From NCBI GenBank assembly GCA_964655245.1, contig CAZZLQ010000001.1, positions 2,537 through 66,536 of the forward strand: a DNA stretch of 64,000 bases. The letters run 5' to 3'. The notes under the pieces are model-generated. The model was not told the origin of the DNA. It searched no databases and saw nothing but the letters and a program-made list of their open reading frames with translations. Source of the stretch: an uncultured Bacteriovoracaceae bacterium (GTDB lineage Bacteria > Bdellovibrionota > UBA2394). Positions 11,023 to 38,767 of this stretch are shown piece by piece. The translations under genes and the position numbers were made by a program. Every line of letters begins with the position of its first letter. Positions within the stretch are counted from its first letter, which is position 1.

Positions 11023-11436
11023 ATGTTACAGCCAGCACGTCAGAAATGGCGAAAGCAATCAAAAGGTCGAAATCGAGGAGACGCTACCAGAGGTCAGTTT
11101 CTATCGGTGGGTGACTTTGGACTTCAGGCAATGGATCGTGGTCGTTTAACCGCGCGGCAGATCGAGGCGGGTCGGATTACGATTAGCCGACATATGAAAC
11201 GTGGCGGAAAGTTACTCATCAGAGTGTTTCCAGATAAGCCGGTTTCAAAGAAACCCCTGGAAGTGCGTATGGGTAAGGGTAAGGGAGCCCCGGAGTTCTA
11301 TGTGGCGGTTATCAAGCCAGGTCGAATTCTTTATGAAATTGAAGGGGTTACGACGGAGATAGCAAAAGAGGCTATGCGATTGGCAGCCTCGAAGCTTCCT
11401 CTAAAAACAAGATTTGTTTCGCGAAAGATGGCCTAA
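11023..11436 (+). CDS. rplP: 50S ribosomal protein L16
   Basis: [22 protein letters not shown] and [13 protein letters not shown] are L16 signatures. Confidence 0.95.
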
Positions 11437-11444
11437 GGTGATAT

Positions 11445-11651
11445 ATGGCAAAAGCTAAAACGGTGAATTTTAAGGAAATGAGCAATACGGATTTGGTGAA
11501 CCGAATCCAGGAGTTTTCGGGTGAGCTGATTGCGGCCCGTCAGAAGGCTCGATTGGGACAGTTTAAGAAGACCTCTGATTTCCCGAGACTTCGTAAAGAG
11601 GTAGCTCGAATCAAGACTGAGCTTCGTAAGCGCGAATTGGCCGGTAAATAG
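11445..11651 (+). CDS. rpmC: 50S ribosomal protein L29
   Basis: A 68-aa helical protein at the L29 position (EL.....EL...LR.Q). Confidence 0.88.
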   Translation: MAKAKTVNFKEMSNTDLVNRIQEFSGELIAARQKARLGQFKKTSDFPRLRKEVARIKTELRKRELAGK

Positions 11652-11674
11652 ATTTAGTTGAGAAAAGGTGAAGT

Positions 11675-11980
11675 ATGGCAGCTGTTGCAACACAAGTAGG
11701 AACAAAATCGCTAAGGAAGATTCAGGGAACCGTCAGATCCAACAAAATGGATAAGACTGTTGTTGTGGAAGCTTCTCGGTTGGTTCGACATCCAAAGTAC
11801 GGCAAGTACTACAAAGTTTATAAAAAATACAAAGCGCATGATGAAAAAAACTCGTGCGGCATGGGTGATATTGTCGAGATCATTGAGTGCCGACCAGTAT
11901 CCAAAGACAAGCGATTCTGTCTTTTGAGAATTGTTGAGCGCGCGAAACGAGCTGAAATCGAAGACGCCGTTGCGGTGTAA
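11675..11980 (+). CDS. rpsQ: 30S ribosomal protein S17
   Basis: GTVRSNKMDKTVVVEASRLVRHPKYGKYYK...HDEKNSCGMGDIVEIIECRP is an S17 signature; short N-terminal extension. Confidence 0.93.
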   Translation: MAAVATQVGTKSLRKIQGTVRSNKMDKTVVVEASRLVRHPKYGKYYKVYKKYKAHDEKNSCGMGDIVEIIECRPVSKDKRFCLLRIVERAKRAEIEDAVAV

Positions 11981-11996
11981 TTGAAAGGTTTTATTT

Positions 11997-12365
11997 ATGG
12001 TTAGAACTCATACAAGACTAACAGTTGCTGACAATACTGGGGCGAAAGAGGTCGAGTGCATCAAGGTCCTTGGTGGCTCCAAACGAAGATATGCAAGCGT
12101 CGGTGATGTCATTGTTGTTGCGGTAAAGGATGCTATCCCTTTTGGTAAAGTAAAAAAGGGGGAAGTAAAGAAGGCTGTGGTTGTGAGAGTATTGAAAGAG
12201 TACAACCGAGCTGACGGCACTTACATTCGTTTTGACGATAACGCTGCCGTATTGATCTCACAGGAGTTGGAGCCAATTGGAACTCGGATTTTCGGGCCTG
12301 TTGCTCGAGAGCTCCGTGCGAAGCGTTTTATGAAAATTATCTCACTCGCTCCGGAGGTACTATAA
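11997..12365 (+). CDS. rplN: 50S ribosomal protein L14
   Basis: L14 motifs ([28 protein letters not shown]); 122 aa. Confidence 0.95.
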
Positions 12366-12665
12366 ATGTTGGCTCGTGTTAAAAAAGGTGACACCGTTTT
12401 TGTGATTTCTGGCAAGGACAAGGGTCGAACTGGTAAGGTCTTGCAGGTTTTTCCGAAGCAGGCTCAATGCATTGTTGAGAAGATTTCTGTGGTCAAACGA
12501 CACCAGAAGGCAAAGCCAGGTCAGCCGGCGGGAATTGTGGAAAAGAGTCTTCCAATTCATCTTTCGAAGGTTATGCCGGTGGATAGCGCTTCCAATAAGC
12601 ATGGAAGAGTGAGATCCCAGCTTCAGGGTGGAAAAAAAGAGAGAAAGATTGTCTCTGTTAAATAG
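12366..12665 (+). CDS. rplX: 50S ribosomal protein L24
   Basis: KOW-domain L24 ([21 protein letters not shown]); in operon position. Confidence 0.92.
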
Positions 12666-12678
12666 TAGGAATTGAGTC

Positions 12679-13368
12679 ATGGCTGATACAAAAGATACAA
12701 AGAAAAAAGCAAAGGGATCTGAAAAATCGGGCTCTAGCGTGAAGTCGAAAGCGACAAGAACAAAGGGCGCTGAGTCGATCGCTCCCGCTGAGTTGGTAGC
12801 TCCTCGGTACAAGGATAAATATAAATCTGAGATTGTTCCGGCTCTGATGAAAGAGTTTGGATTCCGATCTGTGATGCAAGTCCCACGACTGTCGAAAATC
12901 GTGATCAATGCGGGCTTGGGAAAGTCGACTCAGAATATCAAGATTATTGATCAAGCGATGAAGGACATCGCTGCCATTGCTGGTCAAAAGCCTGTGGCTT
13001 GTAAGTCAAAGAAAGCTATTTCAAACTTTAAGTTAAGAGCCGGCCTTCCTATCGGGGTTATGGTTACCTTGCGTGGCGCTCAGATGTTTGAGTTTTTGGA
13101 TCGTTTGATCAACTTGGCTCTGCCTCGAATTCGAGATTTTCGAGGTGTTTCGGAACGCGGATTCGATGGACGTGGGAACTTTACCATGGGTTTGAAAGAC
13201 CAGCTGGTTTTCCCTGAGGTTGATTTCGATTCTGTTGATAACACGTTCGGGATGAACATTAGCTTCGTAACGACTGCGCGAACCGACGATGAAGGCCGCG
13301 CGCTTCTAAACAAGTTTGGGGTGCCTTTCAGAAAACGACCTCAGGCTCAAACTACGAAGGCTGCTTAG
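12679..13368 (+). CDS. rplE: 50S ribosomal protein L5 with a ~48-aa lysine-rich N-terminal extension
   Basis: The L5 core starts at [19 protein letters not shown]...QVPRL and ends with a conserved C-terminus. It is preceded by [42 protein letters not shown]. Confidence 0.92.
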
Positions 13369-26959: not shown

Positions 26960-27036
26960 AAAATTGAAGAATTTCGGGTGCCTGCTTTTACCTGCTGCCT
27001 GGCGTTATAATTGTTGAAGGCAGGGAGTCACGGGAG

Positions 27037-27837
27037 ATGGTTCGGCGAACACTAGTTTATGATGCAGCATCACTACTGCGCGTAAAGCGAGAGAAGGCGC
27101 GTGAGGAAGCGGCCAAGCTGGATCCTAAAGGTCTGGAGGCGGCGCCTTCAACGCAGCCGGACTCAAGCTTAGAGCCCGACTCTCCTATGCGTGTCTTCGA
27201 TCATGCGGATGAATTCGTGGAGGTGAATAAGCCTAAAGTGTCGCAAATGATTGGAATCATTGGGGAAATGAAGAAAATGGCTGAGGCCTCGACGAATTCG
27301 GCTCTTTCCGATGAGGACCGCAAGCAGCTCAACATTAGGTTTGTAGAGAAGCGATCGAGTATCGATCGAATGGCAACTGAAACCGAGTTTCTCGGAAGGA
27401 AACTTTTTAACGGAGATCTCATGCGTGGATCTTTAAAGATTCCTGTAGGGAAGGGGCCCCTTGATGTTGTGGAAGTGCGTTTTGAGTCACTGAAAAATGA
27501 TATGACAGGCCTTGAGGGGCAAAAGATCGATACGTTGGTGAACGCTCGTAACGCCCTGAGGGAGATGGATAACGTCTACGCCCGATTTCAGCTTGTTGGG
27601 ATGATGTTCAAAGCAAAAGAAGATGAAATCAACGTGAAGCGTAAGCAGTTCATCGATGAGAATCGTATTCCTGAGGAAGTGGCAAATGCTCGAAAGCTGA
27701 AAGCCATTCAGGAGGTCGCCAATAAGCGACAGGAAGTGCAGCGAATGACTCTGCATATTGAGTTGAAAGAAGAGCAAGAGAGAATCGCTGAGTTCGAGGG
27801 GAGAGAGCGGGCACTTCTCATCAATCGAAAAATCTAA
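27037..27837 (+). CDS. Divergent flagellin-fold (D0/D1-only) protein lacking the canonical N-terminal secretion/D0 segment
   Basis: The central region aligns motif-for-motif with flagellin N-domain D1 (ASTNSALSDEDRKQL..IDRMATETEFLGRKLFNG...IPVGKGPLD...GLE versus TNSQSDLDSIQ..IDRVSGQTQFNGVKVL...IQVGANDGE...GLD). The C-terminus resembles the flagellin C-terminal D1/D0 (KIDTLVNARNALREMDNVYARFQ...IDEN..EEVAN...KAIQE). The conserved GLRINSAKDDAAG block is absent. Confidence 0.5.
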   Translation: MVRRTLVYDAASLLRVKREKAREEAAKLDPKGLEAAPSTQPDSSLEPDSPMRVFDHADEFVEVNKPKVSQMIGIIGEMKKMAEASTNSALSDEDRKQLNIRFVEKRSSIDRMATETEFLGRKLFNGDLMRGSLKIPVGKGPLDVVEVRFESLKNDMTGLEGQKIDTLVNARNALREMDNVYARFQLVGMMFKAKEDEINVKRKQFIDENRIPEEVANARKLKAIQEVANKRQEVQRMTLHIELKEEQERIAEFEGRERALLINRKI

Positions 27838-27838
27838 G

Positions 27839-30235
27839 CTAATGACTCATGGAGATTTCGGCTGCAGTATGCTTCCTCAAGCTCTTGAGGGGCGTCACAA
27901 ATGTCTCCATCAGATTCGGGGGTAAATCAAAAACGTGAAGCAGTACTTCATCCATATCAACGACTGGATGAAACTTAAAACTCTTAAGGATAGAAGAGTC
28001 GATTTCAGAAAGTTCTCTGAGATTGTCCATGGGGTAGACAATTGTATCAACACCCGCTCGCTTTGCCCCCAAAAGCTTTTCCTTGAGTCCTCCAATAGGC
28101 AAGACTCGACCTCGCAAACTGACTTCACCGGTGAGGCCCACTCTACGATTTACTTTCCAGCCTTTGATGGCGGAGAGAATGGCCACCGTTAAAGCTGTTC
28201 CCGCTGAAGGGCCATCCTTTGGCGTAGCGCCTTCGGGAACGTGGATGTGCAGATCGTGTTTTGAAAAAAAATCTGGCTCAATTTCAAACAGGGTGGCTTT
28301 CGATCGGATGTAGCTAATTGCTGCTCGAGCAGACTCTTGCATCACTGAGCCCAGTTGGCCCGTGATTTGGACGTCACCTTTGCCTATCAGAGAGACGGCT
28401 TCGATTCGAAGAACTTCGCCACCCACTGGAGTCCATGCCAAACCAGTTGAAACGCCTACATCATCGATGGGGCCAAGCTCACTTCGTTTGAAACGGGGCG
28501 CACCAAGATATCTCTCCACAGCCTCCTCGGACCATGCTCGAGGGCTTGGATGCGGGATCCCTGAGCTCTCCTCCCGAACGATCTTGCGACAAATTTTAGA
28601 AATCTGCTTCTCAAGGTCTCTAACGCCAGCTTCGCGCGTGAACCGACGAACAATGTAGGCGATGTCCTTTTCTGCAAGAGCTAGATCAGTTTCAGAGAGC
28701 CCATGGTTTCTGAGAACCTTTGGAACAATATAGTTTTTAGCTATTTGAATCTTTTCATCTTCAGAGTAGCCACTCAGTTGGATGATCTCCATTCTATCCT
28801 TGAGGGGTTGTGATATGGAGTCTGTGAAGTTTGCTGTGCAGATAAAGAGAACTTTGGAGAGATCATACTCGAGTTCCAAATAGTGATCTGAAAAGTGTTT
28901 GTTTTGTTCAGGATCGAGAATCTCAAGCAATGCTGATGCGGGATCCCCTCGAAAATCAGATCCCATCTTGTCGATTTCATCTAGCAAGATCACCGGATTA
29001 CTCACTGAAGCCTTTCGAATTGCAGAGATCACGCGTCCAGGAAGAGCGCCGATGTAGGTTCTCCGGTGACCTCGAAGCTCAGCTTCATCTCGTACTCCAC
29101 CCAAAGAAATCTTTTCGAACTTTCTATTCAAGGATCGAGCAACCGAGCGAGCCAAAGATGTCTTTCCAACCCCAGGAGGTCCCATCAGGCACAGAATGGG
29201 CGATTTGTGCTGAGTCACTCGGGCCCTGACGGAGAGGAACTCTAGAATGCGATCTTTGGCATCTTGGATGCCGTAGTGGTCCTCATTAAGAATTCGCTCT
29301 GCCTGCAGAAGATCTTTGGAATCCTCTGATAGTTCATCCCACGGAAGATCAAGAATGAGGTCGACATAGGCCCTGACCATCTGAGCTTCGGCTGCGTGCC
29401 CACCTGCTTTCAAACGCTTGATTTCCTTCAGAGCTTTTTCCCTAGCGTAGGCTGGCATCTTCTTGGACTCTAACTTCTTTTCGAGTTCAACGGCTTCAGA
29501 GCGGGGGTCTAGATTTTCCTGTCCAAGCTCCTTCTGGATGGCGGCCATTTGCTCGTGGAGATAGTAATCACGATGAGATTTTTCAATCTGCTCCTTTACC
29601 TTGCCTCTGATTTTTCGATCCAGTTTCAGAATCTCAATCTCAGCCAAGATGAGCAGGCTCAAGGCTTCTAGGCGTTCGGGAGCGGGCAGAGTATCTAAAA
29701 TTTTCTGCTTATCTCTCAGTTTCACGGAGATTTGAGAGGCAATGACATTACAAAGGCGATGCGGAGATTCAAGACTGTCGAGGCTTCGGAAAACCTCGTC
29801 TAAGGGGCGGCCACTGTTTTTGAGATATGCCTCATAATGAGTCAACAGCGTTCTCATGAGAATACGTTCCGCACTTGTCGCCGTATGATCTTCATCAGGT
29901 AGACGCTCGACCGATGAAACCAGAAAGCCATCCGTGTCTCGGAGACTGTTGATCTTGGCTCGGAAAAGGCCCTCAACCACAACCTTGAGATTGCCTTCGG
30001 GCATTTTGGTCATGTGCTTGATTCTCGCAATCGTTCCAATGGAGTGGAGATGTTGAATGGCGGGATCTTGAACCTGCGGCTCGCTTTGAGTCACAAGAAA
30101 GACAATTCGGTCATTTCCATCGGCGACATCAATGGCTCTGAGTGATCGACTGCGACCCACATACAGAGAGACACTGGTGTTTGGAAAAACAACAACGTCA
30201 CGAAGTGGAAGTACGGGAAGAGCGCTTAGATTCAT
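27839..30235 (-). CDS. lon: ATP-dependent Lon protease
   Basis: 798 aa with a Lon N-domain, AAA+ Walker A (GPPGVGKTSL) and a C-terminal serine protease domain (PKDGPSAGTALT). Confidence 0.95.
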   Translation of the reverse strand: MNLSALPVLPLRDVVVFPNTSVSLYVGRSRSLRAIDVADGNDRIVFLVTQSEPQVQDPAIQHLHSIGTIARIKHMTKMPEGNLKVVVEGLFRAKINSLRDTDGFLVSSVERLPDEDHTATSAERILMRTLLTHYEAYLKNSGRPLDEVFRSLDSLESPHRLCNVIASQISVKLRDKQKILDTLPAPERLEALSLLILAEIEILKLDRKIRGKVKEQIEKSHRDYYLHEQMAAIQKELGQENLDPRSEAVELEKKLESKKMPAYAREKALKEIKRLKAGGHAAEAQMVRAYVDLILDLPWDELSEDSKDLLQAERILNEDHYGIQDAKDRILEFLSVRARVTQHKSPILCLMGPPGVGKTSLARSVARSLNRKFEKISLGGVRDEAELRGHRRTYIGALPGRVISAIRKASVSNPVILLDEIDKMGSDFRGDPASALLEILDPEQNKHFSDHYLELEYDLSKVLFICTANFTDSISQPLKDRMEIIQLSGYSEDEKIQIAKNYIVPKVLRNHGLSETDLALAEKDIAYIVRRFTREAGVRDLEKQISKICRKIVREESSGIPHPSPRAWSEEAVERYLGAPRFKRSELGPIDDVGVSTGLAWTPVGGEVLRIEAVSLIGKGDVQITGQLGSVMQESARAAISYIRSKATLFEIEPDFFSKHDLHIHVPEGATPKDGPSAGTALTVAILSAIKGWKVNRRVGLTGEVSLRGRVLPIGGLKEKLLGAKRAGVDTIVYPMDNLRELSEIDSSILKSFKFHPVVDMDEVLLHVFDLPPNLMETFVTPLKSLRKHTAAEISMSH

Positions 30236-30284
30236 ACTTCTATGAACATAAGCACATCCAAAGCGATGTCGAGGGCTTTAAGTC

Positions 30285-31544
30285 TTAGGCCGTTTCAGCC
30301 GCTTGTTTTTCCATCAAAAGAATGGGCTTTTCCTTCTTGAGGATCACGTCTTCATTGATGATCACCTCTTTAACGTCCGTTCGAGAGGGTATCTCATACA
30401 TAATGTCGACCATGGCATCCTCGAGAATGGCTCTTAAGCCCCTAGCTCCTGATTTACGCTCCAACGCCATCCGAGCGACCGCTCTTAGAGCATCTTCGGT
30501 GAACTTGAGTTTGACGTTCTCAAAGCCAAAAAGCTTTTGGTACTGACGTACAATCGCATTCTTGGGTTTTCTGAGAATATCGATCAGGGCCTCTTCATCG
30601 AGTTCTCGCAAAGTCGCAATCACGGGGATACGGCCAATGAACTCGGGGATCATTCCAAACTTCAGGAGATCCTGAGGTTCGATTTTCTCCAAGAGGTCGC
30701 CGACTTTTCGGTCTTTCTTCGAGGTTACAGTTCCACCGAAACCGATCGAGTTCTTACCCAATCGACGGGCGATGATTTCATCAAGGCCCACAAAGGCCCC
30801 ACCGCAGATAAAGAGAATATTGGTGGTATCGACTTTGAGAAACTCCTGTTGGGGATGCTTTCGTCCGCCTTTAGGGGGGACGTTGGCCATTGTTCCCTCA
30901 ACAATCTTGAGGAGGGCCTGCTGAACACCTTCTCCACTGACATCACGAGTGATGCTGGGGTTTTCGCCTTTTCTCGAAATCTTATCGATCTCATCGATAT
31001 AAACGATCCCACGCTGAGTCTTTTCAATATCGTAATCAGCGTTTTGCAGAAGGTTGAGAATGATATTTTCAACATCTTCACCAACATACCCAGCTTCTGT
31101 CAGGGTGGTGGCATCAACCATGGTGAAGGGCACTTTGAGAAGACGGGCCAAAGTTTGGGCTAAAAGTGTCTTTCCCGATCCAGTGGGGCCAATCAAGAGG
31201 ATGTTGGATTTCTGTAACTCGACATCATCCTTTGAACCTGTTTTGGCATTAATTCTTTTGTAATGGTTATGAACGGCAACCGAGAGAGTTCTCTTAGCTC
31301 TGTCTTGGCCGATTACATAGTCATCGAGAACTTTTTTGATTTCCGCAGGTTTTGGAACCTTAGCGGTTTCGGAGGGCAAGTCGTTGCTGTCGTATTCCTC
31401 GGCAATGATGTCATTACAGAGCTCAATACATTCATCGCAGATATAGACACTGGGTCCAGCAATGAGCTTTTTAACTTCGCTTTGATGCTTTCCACAGAAA
31501 GAACAACAAAGATCCCCGCCTCGATCTTCTTCTTTACGACTCAT
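30285..31544 (-). CDS. clpX: ATP-dependent Clp protease ATP-binding subunit ClpX
   Basis: N-terminal C4 zinc finger (CSFCGK...CDEC), Walker A GPTGSGKT and an IGF-like loop. Start chosen at the internal ATG at 31544 (AGGAGG Shine-Dalgarno upstream); the ORF-track start at 31595 would overlap clpP. Confidence 0.93.
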
Positions 31545-31557
31545 CCACCCCTCCTTG

Positions 31558-32202
31558 TTATTTCTTAGAAGTCGTCTCTGCGACTTGCGCAGCACGGCTT
31601 TCTACGATCTTATCCACAATTCCATAGCCTAAGGCGTCCTGAGCACTCATCCAGCGATCCCGGTCCGTATGGACCAGTATATCATCCATTCGCTGACCTG
31701 TATGCTTGGCCAAGATCTGATTCAGCTGCTCTCGCAGTCTCAAGATCTCTTTAGCTTGAATCTCGATGTCAGAGGCTTGGCCCTGAGCACCACCCAAAGG
31801 TTGGTGAATCATGACTCGAGAGTGGGGGAGAATAAACCTTTTGCCCTTGGTTCCCGCGGCCAACAAAACCGCTCCCATCGACGCTGCCATTCCCAGACAG
31901 ATCGTGGTTACAGGAGGCCTGATGTACTGAATGGTGTCGTAGATGGCCATTCCAGCGCTCACCGAGCCGCCAGGGCTGTTGATATACAGGTAGATATCCT
32001 GATCGGGATCCTCAGACTCCAAGAACAGCAGTTGAGCCACGATCAAATTGGCGATCTGATCGTCAATCGGAGTTCCTAGAAGAATAATCCGATCTCTGAG
32101 GAGTCGTGAGTAGATATCATAAGCTCGTTCGCCTCGGTTGGTTTGCTCAATAACGATTGGAACCATCGAGTTTGTAACGACTGACCTGCTATTTGCTTCC
32201 AT
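31558..32202 (-). CDS. clpP: ATP-dependent Clp protease proteolytic subunit ClpP
   Basis: ClpP catalytic context (GMAASMGA...H) and a 214-aa length. Confidence 0.94.
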
Positions 32203-32208
32203 AAAGAA

Positions 32209-33522
32209 CTAATCCTTTAATTTTATGGTAGCCTTCGAAAGCGCATAATCAAGGGATTTCTCATCTAGGATGTCGATCTTCAAGCGATCCATTCTCGAAA
32301 GTGATTCGTTGTCTTCTTTTGCAGAGTAGTAGGCCTTAATCTGTGCTACACTGTAGCCAGTTTTCGCGGCTGTTTCGGCCATTCTCTTTTCAAGATCGTC
32401 ACTCGAGACTTCAAAGTTTTGCTGCTTTGCGATGGCTTCCAAAATGTAGCTCAGTCGAATGTCGCGTTCAGCTTTTTTCATCGAGGAAGCGAGAAGAGCC
32501 TTTTCGTTTTCCTCGTTTTCTTCGTGAGGCACTCCCATTTGATGCATCATTTGATGAGCCTCTTGAGCAAGTCGACCTGCGAATTGCTGGACTTGTCTTT
32601 GGCTCACTTCAAATTGATTGTTGCTCACGAGCACATCGCCAACGGCATCACGTTTCGTTTTGCCAAGGTTGGCCTCGTTTCTTTGCTCCAACGTCGTGCG
32701 GATTTTTTGTTTGAGCTCGGTGATTCCAGAAACTTTTTCATCAATGAGTTTTGCAAACTCATCGTTGAGTTCAGGGAGTTTTCGCTCCTTCACGCCGGAA
32801 ACGGACACTGTGAAAGTGGCTGTCTTGCCCGCCAAAGTCTTTTCCCGATAGTCCTCGGGAAACTTGACTTCGAAGCTCTTCGTTTCATCCTTTTTCATTC
32901 CGACAATGCCGGCTTCAAAGTCAGGGAGATAGCGGTTCTCGCCAAGAATGATCGTATGGGATTCGGACTTGAGCATGGGATTATCCACGCCATCAACGGT
33001 TCCCGAAAAACTAGCGACAGCGCAGTCATTCGTGCCCACTTTGTGGTTTTCGGCGGCGTCAGCAAAGGTGACTTCTGCCTTTTGAATGGCCTCAAGCTCT
33101 TGAGCGACTTCGCTGTCTGAAACAGATTTGGCTTTTTGAACTTCAACGGATAGGCCGTCGAGCTTGAGATTGCTAATCTTGGGTTTCAAATGCAATTCAA
33201 CCTCAAAGGTAAAATCCTTGGCTTCGCTAGGGAGATCCGTTGCAAGCAACGAAGGAGGGAGAGCGAGATCCAATTTGTGTTCCTCAATAGCCTTGCCCAA
33301 AAACTCGGCAATCAATCGTTCAGAAAGATCAGCCAACGCTTCATCGCCATACATTTGTTTGACGACATTCGTAGGAGCTTTGCCGGGACGAAATCCAGGA
33401 ACCTTGGCTCGTTTGGCTAGGGTTGCAAAGAAACTGTTCATGCGCTCGGAGACAACGGGCTTTGGAACAGAAACTTTGATGGTCGCTTCGACTGAACTTT
33501 TGTGCTGGATGTTTGAATTCAT
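32209..33522 (-). CDS. tig: Trigger factor
   Basis: 437 aa with an N-terminal ribosome-binding GFRPGKAP motif and a central FKBP-like PPIase region; classic tig-clpP-clpX-lon order. Confidence 0.9.
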   Translation of the reverse strand: MNSNIQHKSSVEATIKVSVPKPVVSERMNSFFATLAKRAKVPGFRPGKAPTNVVKQMYGDEALADLSERLIAEFLGKAIEEHKLDLALPPSLLATDLPSEAKDFTFEVELHLKPKISNLKLDGLSVEVQKAKSVSDSEVAQELEAIQKAEVTFADAAENHKVGTNDCAVASFSGTVDGVDNPMLKSESHTIILGENRYLPDFEAGIVGMKKDETKSFEVKFPEDYREKTLAGKTATFTVSVSGVKERKLPELNDEFAKLIDEKVSGITELKQKIRTTLEQRNEANLGKTKRDAVGDVLVSNNQFEVSQRQVQQFAGRLAQEAHQMMHQMGVPHEENEENEKALLASSMKKAERDIRLSYILEAIAKQQNFEVSSDDLEKRMAETAAKTGYSVAQIKAYYSAKEDNESLSRMDRLKIDILDEKSLDYALSKATIKLKD

Positions 33523-33663
33523 TTGCTTTTTTCACAGCATTTGACGGTTAAAGACAAGCCCCTCAAAGCTGTTCTTAAGGGTCTTGGGGGCACTCAGCAC
33601 GAGCGCAATGATGGGTCCTAAGTATTTGATTTAACTCATTTAATCGGCGACCCTGTTTCGTCC

Positions 33664-35145
33664 TTACAGCAGAAGCTTCCTGATGCGCTGGAGCAAAACG
33701 GGGGGAGGTTCTATTTGCTTCAGCTGCAAGTACCGACGAATCGCGAGTGCTGTGCTGCCGTGAAATCGATCAGAAACGCGAGCCATGGAAATGGGCAGAG
33801 ACAGCTCTTCAATCTGATCCATCAAATGTGTTCGAAAGAGCTCAATTTGATTAGTACGAAGGATGAGCTTGTGAATATCTCCCTGGTACTTTGTTTTTAA
33901 AAGCTGATCGATTTTTTTCACCAGAACTTCATCTACAACATCTCTCTTGAACCATGTTCCTTTTGAAGAGTAGCCAAGATGGTAGGTTCGAAGTTGCTCG
34001 GCGATTTCCGGACGTCCCTTGAGATTCAGATATTCTTTGAGCGCTCGGTAGGGGCTGTTGCCATAGTTGTGGCCTATGTTTCCCATCGAGATGGTGAGAC
34101 GAAGTCCTGCGACTTCCTCTTCGAGCGGGGTCTTGAAGAGTTCCTGGCAGTTTGTTTCACCGATGAGCATCGCCAAGTCGCCGAGGTATCGTGATCGAAG
34201 TAGGTAGTCGATTTTTCTCACCAAGATCTCTTGTCTGATCTCTTTCTGAGACCAGATACCTCGTTGAGTTTGAAGGAGGTGGTAGGGTTTTACAGCTGCC
34301 GCAAGTTCGTTGAGTCCCTTGAGTTTCATATAGTCTTTGAGAGCGGCATACACACTGCCTCGATAGATCTGTCCGATTCGCCCCATCGACACCTCAAGTT
34401 TCAATCCGGAAATGTTCTCAATCAAGGGCTCTTGAAATAGTTCCCTTTTGTTTGTCTGCGATAGTAGTGCATCAACTTTGCCATGGTACTTTTCCTCGAG
34501 GAGCTGATCGATTTTTTTGATGAGAATCGCATGAAGAGTTTCTTCATCGGTCCAAGTATTCGTTGGGGATTGACGAAAGTGATAGGGGCGAATCTGTCCT
34601 GCCAGCTGATTCCAACCTTTGAGATGGAGATAGTGTTTGATGGTGAGGTAAGGGCTTCCCTTAAAGAACTCACGAATAGACTTCATAGAGACCGAAAGCT
34701 TTTTTGTCCCAATCGTTTCTTCGAAACGAGTCGGAAACAATTCATCTTGGCCCGTTTCCATAATCATTCTTGCAAGATTCTGCCGGTATTTTGTTTCAAG
34801 AAGCCGATCGACTTGTTTCAAAAGAACTTCATTGCGAGTTTCCTCGTTCCAGACATCGATGACGAATCGCGCGTGATAGGGACGCACACTTGTCGGAAGT
34901 CCCAAGGCTTGTGCAGAAGTCATAGCGGCAATCAAAGTGGAGATTGGAATGTTGCGCTTGAGGGGGTGCACTCGGCCTTGAGCGTCAGGGCCTCGGTTTC
35001 GCAGAAGAAACTGCGTGATCTCGGAGATCAAATCTCGGCAGGCTGCCGGAGCTTCATAGGCTGAGGAATTGGCCTCCAGTCGACCAAGGAAAAATGCGAT
35101 GAGAACAGACAAAAGCACATGATGGACAAAAAATCGGCGGCTCAT
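33664..35145 (-). CDS. Secreted protein of unknown function composed of four tandem ~100-aa repeats
   Basis: Signal-peptide-like N-terminus (MSRRFFVHHVLLSVLIAFFLGRLEA) then four repeats sharing PYH..(6-7)..W..(8)..L..KID.LL..KY.G.....L...TN..ELF...L......L.L..SM..I...Y..S.Y.ALK.YL.LKG. Start taken at the internal ATG at 35145. Confidence 0.7.
   Translation of the reverse strand: MSRRFFVHHVLLSVLIAFFLGRLEANSSAYEAPAACRDLISEITQFLLRNRGPDAQGRVHPLKRNIPISTLIAAMTSAQALGLPTSVRPYHARFVIDVWNEETRNEVLLKQVDRLLETKYRQNLARMIMETGQDELFPTRFEETIGTKKLSVSMKSIREFFKGSPYLTIKHYLHLKGWNQLAGQIRPYHFRQSPTNTWTDEETLHAILIKKIDQLLEEKYHGKVDALLSQTNKRELFQEPLIENISGLKLEVSMGRIGQIYRGSVYAALKDYMKLKGLNELAAAVKPYHLLQTQRGIWSQKEIRQEILVRKIDYLLRSRYLGDLAMLIGETNCQELFKTPLEEEVAGLRLTISMGNIGHNYGNSPYRALKEYLNLKGRPEIAEQLRTYHLGYSSKGTWFKRDVVDEVLVKKIDQLLKTKYQGDIHKLILRTNQIELFRTHLMDQIEELSLPISMARVSDRFHGSTALAIRRYLQLKQIEPPPVLLQRIRKLLL
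33712..34884 (-). repeat. Four tandem, diverged ~300-bp in-frame coding repeats (about 98, 100, 100 and 93 codons)
   Basis: Repeat units begin at protein residues about 104, 202, 302 and 402 (RPYH / RPYH / KPYH / RTYH) and share roughly 30-40% amino-acid identity with conserved spacing. Confidence 0.7.
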
Positions 35146-35200
35146 TTCGGATGAGCAACTGCCAGATTCAGGGCTGTAAGTGAATAGCCCCAAAGAACAA

Positions 35201-35282
35201 TGCGGGATGAGGGACTTGAACCCCCACGAGTTACCTCACTAGGTTCTAAGCCTAGCGCGTCTGCCAATTCCGCCAATCCCGC
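35201..35282 (-). tRNA. tRNA-Leu (anticodon TAG), type II with a long variable arm
   Basis: The reverse complement folds as GCGGGAT-TG-GCG-GAATTGGCAGA-CGC..CTAGG-CTTAGAA-CCTAG-(variable TGAGGTAACTCGT)-GGGGG-TTCAAGT-CCCTC-ATCCCGC-A, close to canonical bacterial tRNA-Leu. Confidence 0.85.
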
Positions 35283-35442
35283 GAGAATCGAACACTGCGG
35301 AGACAATATATCCCGATTTTAAGGAGTGCACTTATTTTTTTGAGGATACCCCCCCAAATCTGACTTTTCCTATACAGGGCGAAGCTGGCGTCATTATTCT
35401 GCAGCTAGAGCATCAGGGGATGGCCCAGAGAGGAAGTGGCAT

Positions 35443-36735
35443 GTGATTCATGGAGCAATTGAAGAGCAGGTGAGCTGGAAGAAGGAGATTGTGGGGGGGG
35501 TCACGACCTTCTTAACGATGTCCTACATCATCGTAGTGAATCCTCGAATTCTATCCGCAGCGGGGATGGAGTTCTCCGGCGTTATGACGGCAACAGTGCT
35601 TGTGACCTTGCTTATGACCCTCCTCATGGGACTGTATGCTAAGTTACCGTTCGCTGTTGCACCTGGCATGGGTCTCAATGCTTTTTTTGCCTATACGCTT
35701 GTGTTGGGAATGAATGTGCCCTGGCAGATTGCCTTAGGAATTGTGTTTTGGTCTGGAGTTCTTTTCATCCTGATCTCTGGCACTCGACTTCGAGAGATGA
35801 TTGCTCAAGCAATGCCAGGAAACATCCGCGTTGCCGTTGCTGTTGGAATTGGTTTTTTTCTGACATTTATTGGGCTTAAGAATCTAGGCTTAGTGGTGGG
35901 TGATCCTGTGACGTTGGTGAAGTTTGGCGCGCTCAACGTCAAGACTGTAACGGCCCTTGTGGGGTTATTGTTCATGACTTGGCTGATGATTCACAAATCT
36001 CCATTTGCCTTCATCAATGGGATCGTTGCGATCGCGATTGTCTCTTGGGTTTTGGGTTGGGCCCCGATGCCTGAAAAAATTTTGAGCGCTCCAGATTTTT
36101 CTTCTGTCCTTTTGAAGTTGGATATTGTGAATGCCCTCCAGTGGAGTCTGATTCCAGCCATCATCACTGTGGTTCTGACAATCTTGTTTGATTCCCTTTC
36201 AACATTCATGGGAGTTTCGAAGGCCGCCAATCTACTCGATGCACAAGGGCAGCCGCGAAATTTGCGTCAGGGCCTGATCGTTGATTCCGTTGCTTCAATT
36301 ACTTCAGGATTGGCCGGAACTTCCCCCGCAGTTCCCTACATAGAAAGTGCGGCAGGCATTGAAATGGGAGGGCGAACCGGACGAGCTTCTATTGTGACAG
36401 CGCTTTGTTTTTTACCCTGTTTGTTCATCGCTCCGTTAGCGATTGCCATTCCTGAGTACGCAACAGCCCCCGTTTTGATTTTGGTTGGGGCGCTGATGTT
36501 TCGACATGTGAAAGATTTTGATTTCAGTGGGCGATTTGAGGATTTGATTCCCGCGTTTTTAACTGTGATTCTTGTGCCACTGACCTTTTCGATTACTCAG
36601 GGGATTCTTTGGGGCTTTATCGCGCACTCGCTGATGTATGTCCTTGTTGGTCGAGCTCGCGAGGTCAAACCCACGATGTATGGGCTTTCGCTTGTTTCAG
36701 TTGTGTTGCTCTTGGTGGAGAATGTCTTCGTTTGA
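35443..36735 (+). CDS. Purine (guanine/hypoxanthine/adenine) permease, AzgA/PbuG subfamily of NCS2
   Basis: 430-aa polytopic membrane protein with AzgA-family conservation (GGVTTFLTMSYIIVVNP, GLNAFFAYT, SAAGIEMGGRTG). Confidence 0.85.
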   Translation: MIHGAIEEQVSWKKEIVGGVTTFLTMSYIIVVNPRILSAAGMEFSGVMTATVLVTLLMTLLMGLYAKLPFAVAPGMGLNAFFAYTLVLGMNVPWQIALGIVFWSGVLFILISGTRLREMIAQAMPGNIRVAVAVGIGFFLTFIGLKNLGLVVGDPVTLVKFGALNVKTVTALVGLLFMTWLMIHKSPFAFINGIVAIAIVSWVLGWAPMPEKILSAPDFSSVLLKLDIVNALQWSLIPAIITVVLTILFDSLSTFMGVSKAANLLDAQGQPRNLRQGLIVDSVASITSGLAGTSPAVPYIESAAGIEMGGRTGRASIVTALCFLPCLFIAPLAIAIPEYATAPVLILVGALMFRHVKDFDFSGRFEDLIPAFLTVILVPLTFSITQGILWGFIAHSLMYVLVGRAREVKPTMYGLSLVSVVLLLVENVFV

Positions 36736-36739
36736 AATT

Positions 36740-36813
36740 TCGGAATGAGTGGATTCGAACCACCGACCTCTTGTTCCCGAAACAAGCGCTCTACCAGGCT
36801 GAGCTACATTCCG
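36740..36813 (-). tRNA. tRNA-Pro (anticodon CGG)
   Basis: The reverse complement folds as CGGAATG-TA-GCTC-AGCCTGGTA-GAGC-G-CTTGT-TTCGGGA-ACAAG-AGGTC-GGTGG-TTCGAAT-CCACT-CATTCCG-A. Confidence 0.85.
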
Positions 36814-36865
36814 ATCTCTGTTTGAATATCATAAAGGCCAAGCTTTGCAACGAGAGGATAGCTTC

Positions 36866-38656
36866 TTAAAAGCCAATATTAAGGCCAGCGGGGCGCAGAT
36901 AGCTTAGCATCCGGTCTAGCGATTCCCTCACTCGAGTCAGCACTTGAGCTTGCATTTCAGATTTGGGTCGCCCTTCGTATTTCTTTTGTCCCTTTCCGTG
37001 AGGAAAGGTCTCCACCTTGAGCATTTCACCAGTGGGTGAATACTTCACGACAATCGTGCCTTCATCCTTGAGGGTAATGGATTGGGGCTTTCCATACTCC
37101 CAATAGGTGAACGCGATTTCATCGCCTTTGAGTTGATCTCTCAAGAACAAGAGCTTTCCGTTCTTGTTGTATTGTAACTTGAGATGCATCGTGGGTTTAC
37201 TCGCGGCAAGCTCTTTGGCTTCAACGAGATTGCATCGTGGGTCAAAAGTGAAGTTGAGAGAAGATTCCTTTCCTTGAGCAGTTTTGAGAGCAATCATCTT
37301 CACTTGGCTGCATCGTGCTTCATAGTCAAAAGTCATCAGGTCGCCTGAGGGAACTGACTGCCGACTGATCATGTTTCCTGTATTGGGATCATAGACGTAT
37401 TTGTCCCCTTGTCCTCGGGCATCTAAGACAGACGCGGGATAGCCTGTTTCCTTGGAAAATGTCTTCGTCTCTCGAGATGTTTCTTTGTCGGAGGAGTCAT
37501 GTTTGCTCACCCGCTCAAACTCTTTGAGTTTGAACTCATGAATCTCTTTCCCGACGTAGCGATCACCCTCGTACTTGGAAATTTCGGTAATGCTGTGACT
37601 GCTGTTGTTCCCTGGAAAGCTGCGAGAGTACTTAGACACCTTTGTTCCGGGCCCGGACTGCTTGGCGACTTCGTACTTGGCATTGTACTCGAATCGAATC
37701 TCTTCTTTGTCCTTCCCGGGAGCGGAGGTGATCATTTTGGTCATATTGCCTACTTTGTCGTACTCAAACTCCATTTTCTTTCCAGAGACATCGGTGAAGG
37801 ATTTTAAGCGGCGAGAGGGCAGCATTTCATAGGTTGCCTTCCGACCGAGTGAGTCAGTGATTTCTCGAACGAGTCCCTTGAGCGCTGAATCCGCTTGATA
37901 GGCTAAGTTCACGGATCGACCGCACATATCATTAATTCGAATCAGATTTTCGTCAGCGTAAGCATAGTCAATTGCGTTTCCGTTTCGATCCTCAGATCGA
38001 ATGAGTCGGCCCGATGAATTGAAAAACTCCTGGGAGGAATTCTGGAACCGCCTTACAAAAGTACCATCGGGTCGAAGCTCGATGGTCGAAGGTCCTCTGG
38101 CAAAGCTATAGTACGTCCCGGGACCTGCCATCGGTTGAGTCGCAAGGAGCTTGCTCGCCAGCTGTTCTCGGAAGCGCTCTTCGTTGATGAGTTTGCGACG
38201 AAGTTCCTCATACGCCGTTGGCGATTTGATTCCTCCCGCCTGCACATCGACTTTCTTTTGAGCGACAAGAATCTTTTCAATCTGAGCGGTCTTTGCTTCC
38301 TCGAGATTCCGCTCCTTGGTGTAAACGTTAGTGAAGCCGTCTCCCTCCAAAACCTCGATTCTGGCTGGCGCTCTCTTCACACGAATATTGTGATTGAATG
38401 TCCACTTATCTCCAAAGATGCTCGAGTTTCCCGAGTAGGAGTTGTAGGCCATTTTGAGTTCAATCGGAGCATAACAAGGTAGTGCGAAGTGATCTTCAAT
38501 CGGTAGAAAAAAGTTTAAGGTGCGTACATTCACAGGATCAGGAGGATAGTGATAGAAAAATGTTGTGCCTTGCGGGCCGTACCCAAGTGACTCCTCATGA
38601 GACGCGCTGGCTGTGACAGACAGGCTGAAGATCAGTCCAAAGCAGAAGAATTTCAT
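36866..38656 (-). CDS. Secreted YD-repeat (RHS-like repeat) protein, no recognisable C-terminal toxin domain
   Basis: Signal peptide MKFFCFGLIFSLSVTASA, then multiple YD-type repeats (NAIDYAYADENLIRIND..GRSVNLAYQ..., GRKATYEM..., KMEFEYDKVGNMTKM, IRFEYNAKYEV, KYVYDPNTGNMIS, MTFDYE). Confidence 0.7.
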   Translation of the reverse strand: MKFFCFGLIFSLSVTASASHEESLGYGPQGTTFFYHYPPDPVNVRTLNFFLPIEDHFALPCYAPIELKMAYNSYSGNSSIFGDKWTFNHNIRVKRAPARIEVLEGDGFTNVYTKERNLEEAKTAQIEKILVAQKKVDVQAGGIKSPTAYEELRRKLINEERFREQLASKLLATQPMAGPGTYYSFARGPSTIELRPDGTFVRRFQNSSQEFFNSSGRLIRSEDRNGNAIDYAYADENLIRINDMCGRSVNLAYQADSALKGLVREITDSLGRKATYEMLPSRRLKSFTDVSGKKMEFEYDKVGNMTKMITSAPGKDKEEIRFEYNAKYEVAKQSGPGTKVSKYSRSFPGNNSSHSITEISKYEGDRYVGKEIHEFKLKEFERVSKHDSSDKETSRETKTFSKETGYPASVLDARGQGDKYVYDPNTGNMISRQSVPSGDLMTFDYEARCSQVKMIALKTAQGKESSLNFTFDPRCNLVEAKELAASKPTMHLKLQYNKNGKLLFLRDQLKGDEIAFTYWEYGKPQSITLKDEGTIVVKYSPTGEMLKVETFPHGKGQKKYEGRPKSEMQAQVLTRVRESLDRMLSYLRPAGLNIGF

Positions 38657-38767
38657 TATGTTAAGAACGGAAAGCACTTCTTCAATGATAACTGAAGCTG
38701 GGGATTTTCAGGCAGAATTTCCTTTAGGGAAAGCGTTGGAAATGGTGCGAAGCGTCGATGATTTAGC

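Follow-up and report, generated by a model that had tools for sequence, protein, structure and literature searches.

A stretch of 64,000 nucleotides (nt) from an uncultured Bacteriovoracaceae bacterium (contig CAZZLQ010000001.1, positions 2,537 to 66,536), here called the window, carries on its minus strand a complete coding sequence at positions 33664–35145. The product consists of a predicted signal peptide, a conserved head, and four tandem repeats of about 100 amino acids (aa) each. The stop codon occupies 33664–33666 and the ATG lies at 35145, so that the open reading frame (ORF) list and its translation give 493 aa plus the stop. A longer ORF would start at a TTG at 35193, 8 nt after a tRNA-Leu gene. 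This longer version is unlikely, since the orthologous proteins start at the counterpart of the ATG codon; position 35145 is therefore taken as the start throughout. An identical protein, bearing no name, is already present in a public sequence collection.

The four units open with P/T-Y-H at residues 89, 187, 287, and 387 of the translation, and all are read from the minus strand. Repeat 1 (aa 89–186; 34588–34881) is of the "first-repeat" type, that is, the loop from PYH to the following W is shorter. Repeat 2 (aa 187–286; 34288–34587) is the unit with a single-repeat structure model, described below. Repeat 3 (aa 287–386; 33988–34287) is the best conserved among the orthologues, with a mean identity of 90%. 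Repeat 4 (aa 387–493; 33667–33987) ends differently, as a short basic C-terminal helix (PPPVLLQRIRKLLL) replaces the next PYH; the unit itself spans aa 387–489, and the protein ends 4 residues later. Compared with one another by BLASTP, the repeats are 38–44% identical over 78–100 residues (E 2.8e-18 to 4.6e-31), a similarity far beyond chance. Their four-way alignment has 19 invariant columns, as follows: Y2, H3, W11, L20, D25, L27, L28, Y32, T43, E47, L48, F49, L62, S65, M66, S76, Y84, L87, and K88. An initial reading of the letters alone, made before any database was searched (the sequence-only reading), had described four repeats of about 100 aa sharing a consensus of fixed spacing, and the invariant columns reproduce that consensus.

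Across 253 repeats of the wider family, defined below, conservation is 100% at R/K99, 96% at P1, 82% at Y2, 98% at H3, 90% at Tyr85, and 82% at Pro53. The strongest conservation of the repeat thus lies in the [R/K]-P-Y-H joint, where one unit passes into the next. Variable loops follow PYH, lie within the hairpin, and flank helix 4. They differ from repeat to repeat within a protein and are conserved across the orthologues repeat by repeat. Among the 253 repeats, no discrete hypervariable "code" of one or two residues is seen.

The repeats are old. Their DNA has diverged almost fully, leaving alignable patches of just 31–61 nt (e.g., 48 nt at 81% and 31 nt at 87%), and the duplications must therefore be old. 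The window repeats are up to 49% identical to repeats of distant homologues, which makes them as similar to those as to their sister repeats, and the shorter PYH-to-W loop tends to mark first repeats across the family. Both features indicate that the organisation of the array predates the window clade. A different pattern is displayed by a 632-aa protein from a Joint Genome Institute (JGI) metagenome (P0006), the repeats of which, unlike those of the window protein, come in near-identical alternating pairs: repeats 1, 3, and 5 all end in LEKDFWGIRPYH, and repeats 2 and 4 end in LEEEFLEVKPYH. The alternating pairs point to recent two-unit duplications and to a copy number that is still evolving in the family.

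Known families were sought by scanning the Pfam, NCBIfam, PADLOC, and PHROGs libraries with the window protein, eight homologues, 49 single repeats, 21 C-terminal domains, and 10 atypical members. The hmmscan of the window protein against Pfam and NCBIfam at E ≤ 10 gave nothing above threshold. The best Pfam match, DUF1554, is a local likeness of 33 residues (aa 117–149) over a quarter of the model; at 18.9 bits it falls short of the gathering threshold of 27.5, and the window protein does not belong to DUF1554. PADLOC and PHROGs returned inconsistent weak matches only, with REase_II and ZorE each touching 2 of the 49 repeats, and no catalytic family was detected by the four libraries in the window protein or the repeats. 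The homologues' weak library matches (Sec15_C, YhdB, Helicase_Sgs1, and others) are unrelated to one another and differ between proteins, since what is being scored is a short amphipathic helix summed over several repeats. A profile of 49 repeats compared with PDB sequences yielded no match, the best being BlaI at E 0.57, and no credible PDB match to the repeat was obtained by sequence or by fold. Full-text literature searches found nothing relevant to the repeat family. In both sequence and fold, the family is thus undescribed, with no entry in Pfam, NCBIfam, or the PDB and no mention in the searchable literature.

These searches bear directly on whether the protein is a divergent member of a common repeat or cell-wall-binding family, such as TPR, SEL1, PG_binding, or LysM. 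This explanation was considered in view of how often the exported repeat proteins of bacteria fall into such families, and no support for it was found. As the sequence-only reading had supposed, TPR, SEL1, PG_binding_1, and LysM are absent from the hmmscan of the window protein at E ≤ 10; the homologues show no such match at E ≤ 1, and in the profile searches no single repeat confidently matched a known repeat family. The unit is about 100 aa long and includes a β-hairpin, whereas TPR and SEL1 units are two-helix elements of 34–40 aa. Together with the lack of a PDB match by sequence or fold, these differences effectively exclude the explanation at the sensitivity of the searches made.

The fold of the repeat is predicted with confidence by AlphaFold2 (AF2). 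The full-length run, which used a 12-sequence family alignment, gave a mean predicted local distance difference test score (pLDDT) of 88.1 and a predicted TM-score (pTM) of 0.70, with residues 1–31 disordered (pLDDT below 50). The single-repeat run, which used 49 aligned repeats, gave a pLDDT of 86.6 and reproduced the module of the full-length model, in which the secondary structure is identical in each repeat. In both models, the order of elements is an 18-residue helix, two short helices, a β-hairpin, a short helix, an 11-residue helix, and a final short helix. The sequence-only reading expected a helical bundle. Six helices are indeed predicted; the modelled module is nevertheless α/β, with a hairpin, rather than a pure bundle. 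The best structural matches to one repeat are TetR-family and other helix-turn-helix (HTH) domains, over 65–70 residues at about 3 Å. The likeness to HTH and winged-helix domains (TetR family; PDB 3crj, 2id3, 5d1w, and others) lies in the helix-helix-helix-hairpin order, and PadR, MarR, MecI, GntR, and Sso10a appear in the tail of the Foldseek matches. On the models, it is possible that the module has a distant HTH or winged-helix-like core.

The array is preceded by a conserved head, aa ~33–88 (34882–35049, minus strand), which ends at the first RPYH. The head is about 55 aa long, bears the motif GPDxxGRxHP...LExAIxxAxxxGL, and directly precedes the first PYH throughout the family, being present in about 40 members (alignment A5). 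Residues 33–88 of the window protein align with 37 other heads, and two glycines, G21 and G26, are invariant. The AF2 model places helices at 34–49 and 68–80, around the GPDxxGRxHP loop. A head profile found no relative in the PDB, the matches being designed helical repeats only. The possibility that the head is a degenerate repeat was rejected, as hhalign aligned nothing beyond the shared PYH. Thus, the signal peptide noticed in the sequence-only reading is in place, and the repeats do not follow it directly, as was then thought; the head intervenes.

The predicted Sec signal peptide covers aa 1–25 (MSRRFFVHHVLLSVLIAFFLGRLEA, followed by NS; 35071–35145, minus strand) and was recognised by hydropathy and inspection. 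It is laid out as MSRR, then FFVHHVLLSVLIAFFLG, then RLEA before the NS, and its 12-residue hydropathy maximum of 2.86 is the highest N-terminal value in the family. By inspection, it has the features of a signal peptidase I substrate, namely a basic n-region, an h-region of ~10–17 residues, and small residues at −3 and −1. Inspection and hydropathy give the same picture in all four orthologue lineages of the window clade, as follows: a basic n-region, a hydrophobic core of 12–17 residues, a (L/V)-(E/D)-A cleavage-type motif, and, after this N-terminal segment, a Ser/Ala/Pro-rich linker. The orthologous signal peptides are equivalent but poorly conserved, ending in VEA or LDA (P0002, P0003/P0081, and P0085). 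The protein was earlier called secreted, and these shared features are what would be expected if it is. A lipoprotein was ruled out, there being no lipobox in register with the h-region. Outside the window clade, a comparable hydrophobic N-terminus is found only in one protein, P0016, and export appears to be a clade-specific feature.

The same N-terminal segment could instead be an uncleaved signal anchor that tethers the protein to the inner membrane. The h-region of the window protein, at ~17 residues, is the sole segment in the family that passes a transmembrane-like threshold (19-residue window above 1.7), and an n-region with two Arg residues suits an N-in orientation. In the orthologues, however, the h-region is shorter and its hydrophobicity lower (12-residue maxima 1.6–2.0), and the conserved small-x-Ala motif followed by the Ser/Ala/Pro-rich linker, found in all of them, is typical of cleaved signal peptides. 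We regard tethering as improbable.

The family to which the window protein belongs is defined by at least two units of ~99 aa, each with a [R/K]-P-Y-H opening, a VDEVLVKKIDQLL-type helix, a P-L-x-D...V-S-M hairpin, and a S-P-x-x-x-x-R-Y-x-x-L-K-G helix; the window protein has four such units and the head. A phmmer search with the window protein over 5.8 billion clusters retrieved 12 proteins (E 1e-238 to 2e-31), among which the distant members lie at E 1e-116 to 2e-31. A HMMER profile of the repeat run over 1.84 billion representatives retrieved 72 clusters at 50% identity, and the family is very rare; the window protein matches this profile at E 1.5e-126, its own repeats being included in the profile. 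Every named member is a "hypothetical protein". A scan of viral contigs turned up no relative, and one of metagenome contigs turned up two short loci. Members are both archaeal and bacterial; one of them, MFQ5621204.1 (P0007), comes from a metagenome-assembled genome (MAG) of Candidatus Nanoarchaeia.

The architecture of the family is a head followed by one to eight repeats, with or without a further domain, and nearly all members are without a signal peptide. The distant unnamed homologues resemble the window protein in the head motif and in the [R/K]PYH-initiated repeats of ~99 aa, and they differ in having from one to eight repeats, no signal peptide, and often a C-terminal domain of ~250 aa. 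This conserved domain (C-domain) follows the last repeat in about 24 clusters, that is, about a third, including P0005, P0007, P0008, and P0013–P0031 (alignment A4). A basic CFxGxPETRxRR segment lies at its start, and its motifs are YLGLExE, ERD, NLDYxGH, and YxGG. It has no Pfam assignment, 2 of 21 members touching a methyltransferase Pfam model, and a word-index search with the C-domain returned repeat-bearing fragments only. A profile of the domain can be aligned in register with class I methyltransferases of the RsmD type (Pfam Cons_hypoth95; PDB 2ift and 2esr) over motifs II–IV and the following β-strand, with vvERD opposite fLELD at motif II and NLDYxGH, which replaces DPPF/Y, opposite LDPPFH at motif IV. 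The E values are only 0.11–0.3, and YLGLE(T/S)E stands in place of the glycine-rich motif I. Judged from these alignments, the C-domain of the relatives is probably methyltransferase-like. The window protein is without the C-domain.

Two members of the family have layouts of their own. P0010, an archaeal protein (L002, 333–2120; L003, 2049–3836), has the head and five repeats and no C-domain. On two independent contigs, its gene is 37 nt upstream of, and co-oriented with, an rpS17e-Rpp14-proteasome alpha-SBDS-Rrp4-Rrp41-Rrp42 cluster. P0016 (L005, 6504–10715; CAYNHQ010000006.1, "uncultured bacterium") is a protein of 1403 aa composed of a signal-peptide-like N-terminus, an unknown region of ~500 aa, the head, six repeats, and the methyltransferase-like C-domain; a gene for a large serine recombinase (11218–12783) is immediately downstream.

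The frequent fusion of the array to a methyltransferase-like domain suggests that the array serves for targeting or for binding a substrate. A rival explanation is that the array is a tandem winged-helix or HTH-like module for binding nucleic acid, which would guide the methyltransferase-like domain of the relatives and, in the exported form, bind extracellular or prey nucleic acid. The winged-helix and HTH proteins in the Foldseek tail speak for it, as do the helix-helix-helix-hairpin order, which recalls H1-H2-H3-wing, and the alignment of the fused domain with RsmD-like methyltransferases, which act on RNA or DNA bases. The mature window protein is basic (pI 9.6, net charge +17), the strongest motif is [R/K]-P-Y-H, and the archaeal P0010 is encoded directly upstream of the cluster of rpS17e, Rpp14, proteasome, and exosome genes described above. 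Against these points, the putative recognition helix has just ~6 residues, the charge of the array varies across the family from pI 4.8 to 9.8, many arrays being acidic, and a residue code is not evident. An exported protein, moreover, would have no obvious nucleic-acid target unless it were delivered into prey. Nucleic-acid binding is possible, and we hold it to be doubtful rather than improbable.

The window protein has four orthologue lineages, counting its own, as follows: window/P0080, P0002, P0003/P0081, and P0004/P0085. They are 72–75% identical, their repeats correspond one to one, and they share a neighbourhood consisting of an RHS-like protein, a permease, the repeat gene, tig, clpP, clpX, and lon. 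One syntenic orthologue is in a Bacteriovoracaceae MAG, JBEIHI010000024.1 (L004), and the Bacteriovoracaceae copies carry signal peptides. The Bacteriovoracaceae belong to Bdellovibrionota, a predatory phylum. Comparison of the window gene with this 75%-identical orthologue by the Nei–Gojobori method gives dN/dS 0.14 (dN 0.18, dS 1.3). The gene is under purifying selection. An array that is ancient and under selection, as first proposed from the sequence, is what this ratio and the equal similarity to distant repeats show.

Could the gene have lost its function and be decaying from a larger, methyltransferase-bearing ancestor that was acquired horizontally beside a tRNA? The window protein does lack the C-domain found in about a third of the clusters, the gene adjoins tRNA-Leu, tRNA genes being common integration sites, and the distribution of the family across archaea and bacteria is patchy. 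Yet the ORF is intact, with conserved synteny, in four lineages whose proteins are ~25–28% divergent, and the low dN/dS speaks against decay. Complete proteins without the C-domain exist elsewhere (P0009 and P0010), and a signal peptide has been gained and is maintained in all lineages. The GC content of the repeat gene, 0.45–0.48, equals that of its surroundings, and recent horizontal acquisition is not supported, as there is no GC anomaly. A remnant is therefore strongly disfavoured and can be given hardly any weight.

Repeat 3 stands apart from the other repeats, the orthologous identities of which are 68–78%, and its dS of 0.23 is oddly low. A sliding comparison of window positions 27000–35300 with L004 reveals patches of 95–98% DNA identity on a background of 70–80%. 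The patches lie at about 34000–34300 (repeat 3), 33335–33560 (the 5′ end of tig), 32060–32500 (the 3′ end of tig and clpP), and 31390–31830 (clpP and clpX). An element embedded at the nucleotide level in repeat 3 was considered and rejected, because similar patches recur in tig, clpP, and clpX. The patchy identity suggests recombination between related lineages or a chimeric MAG assembly, rather than a feature of the repeat gene.

The gene was placed by the sequence-only reading between tRNA-Leu and the tig-clpP-clpX-lon cluster, and the ORF list, ARAGORN, and Rfam agree. The tRNA-Leu(tag) gene (35201–35282, minus strand; ARAGORN and Rfam) shares the strand of the repeat gene and lies 56 nt upstream of its ATG. 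On the other side, and also on the minus strand, are tig (32209–33522), which encodes trigger factor and is the first gene of the cluster, clpP (31558–32202), clpX (30285–31595), and lon (27839–30235). These genes are context only, and no functional link is drawn from them. Their positions are from the ORF list, and the Pfam labels of the flanking genes were transferred from the syntenic contig of the orthologue P0004. The ORF called mechanically for clpX has 436 aa, starts at GTG, and shares 38 nt with the end of clpP. Given that the orthologue is annotated as 419 aa, the true start is probably an internal Met. A scan for sigma-70-like promoters and terminators between the repeat gene and its neighbours found no such promoter and no convincing terminator, none scoring above shuffled controls, and the Rfam scan found two tRNAs and nothing else.

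Upstream of the repeat gene are a xanthine/uracil-type permease gene (35443–36735, plus strand) and tRNA-Pro (36739–36814, minus strand). Beyond them, two genes upstream of the repeat gene, positions 36866–38677 (minus strand) encode a 603-aa protein with a signal-peptide-like N-terminus, the syntenic counterpart of which has Pfam matches to DUF6531 and RHS/YD repeats. No link between this RHS-like protein and the repeat protein was found.

The reading we favour, to which we give about an even chance, is that the gene product is an exported, non-enzymatic, rigid tandem-repeat binding array. A Sec signal peptide would be cleaved after Ala25, and the mature protein of ~468 aa would fold in the periplasm or outside the cell. 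There, it would form a rigid array, that is, a two-helix head followed by four α/β modules of ~100 aa. The near-invariant [R/K]-P-Y-H joint and the conserved Tyr of the fifth helix (Tyr85) probably lock adjacent modules together. Since the variable loops differ between repeats and are kept between orthologues, the array probably presents four distinct binding surfaces. The ligand might be proteinaceous, a polymer of the envelope, or nucleic acid. In the relatives, a cytoplasmic head-plus-array probably directs the methyltransferase-like domain to the substrate of that domain; the Bacteriovoracaceae-type clade would use the same array with an export signal and without the C-domain. The secreted, undescribed array of the sequence-only reading is kept here, and what that reading did not see is the wider setting, in which the family is mostly cytoplasmic, with frequent fusion to a methyltransferase-like domain, and the window protein appears as a truncated offshoot that is exported.

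Several points weigh against this proposal. The gene context points to no ligand, the neighbours in the window being housekeeping genes, and a comparison of gene contexts shows that the neighbours of the distant homologues are not conserved. The invariant His of each repeat could be a ligand-contacting or catalytic residue instead of part of a structural joint. The packing role given to PYH and Tyr85 derives from sequence spacing and the pTM, and export is judged from inspection of the sequence, so that an uncleaved signal anchor is conceivable.

A bolder proposal is that the PYH repeat represents a new type of modular targeting array, in which each module of ~100 aa would recognise one unit of a polymer such as DNA or RNA. 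The array would steer an RsmD-like methyltransferase domain in uncultivated archaea and bacteria, and a lineage of predatory Bacteriovoracaceae would have converted it to an exported effector with its action outside the cytoplasm of the producing cell, for example, against prey. P0016 fits this proposal: with a signal-peptide-like N-terminus and an unknown region of ~500 aa in addition to the array and the methyltransferase-like domain, it resembles what might be expected of a delivered effector. The comparison is with TALE, PUF, and PPR proteins, which likewise are tandem arrays of variable copy number whose repeats keep their identities across orthologues; in the PYH relatives, too, an effector-like domain is attached to the array. 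The analogy is functional only: the TALE, PUF, and PPR units are all-helical hairpins of 33–36 aa, in contrast to the α/β units of ~100 aa described here, and no specificity code is seen. We consider this proposal a long shot.

At present, the PYH repeats make up a well-delimited family with a function that is only inferred. An exported tandem-repeat binding protein is a familiar kind of object, and no new mechanism is demonstrated. Modular repeat arrays such as TALE, PUF, and PPR have repeatedly proved biologically important and engineerable, and a new module of ~100 aa with variable copy number merits a structure and a ligand screen. The main reservoir of prey-directed activities yet to be discovered in Bdellovibrio-like predators is their exported proteins of unknown function. 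If the proposals made here are correct, a repeat module that folds confidently in prediction, and that no database or solved structure describes, would have been put to use twice: in archaea and uncultivated bacteria it would do the targeting for a rare methyltransferase-like protein, and in a predatory bacterial lineage it would be exported as an array that stands alone.

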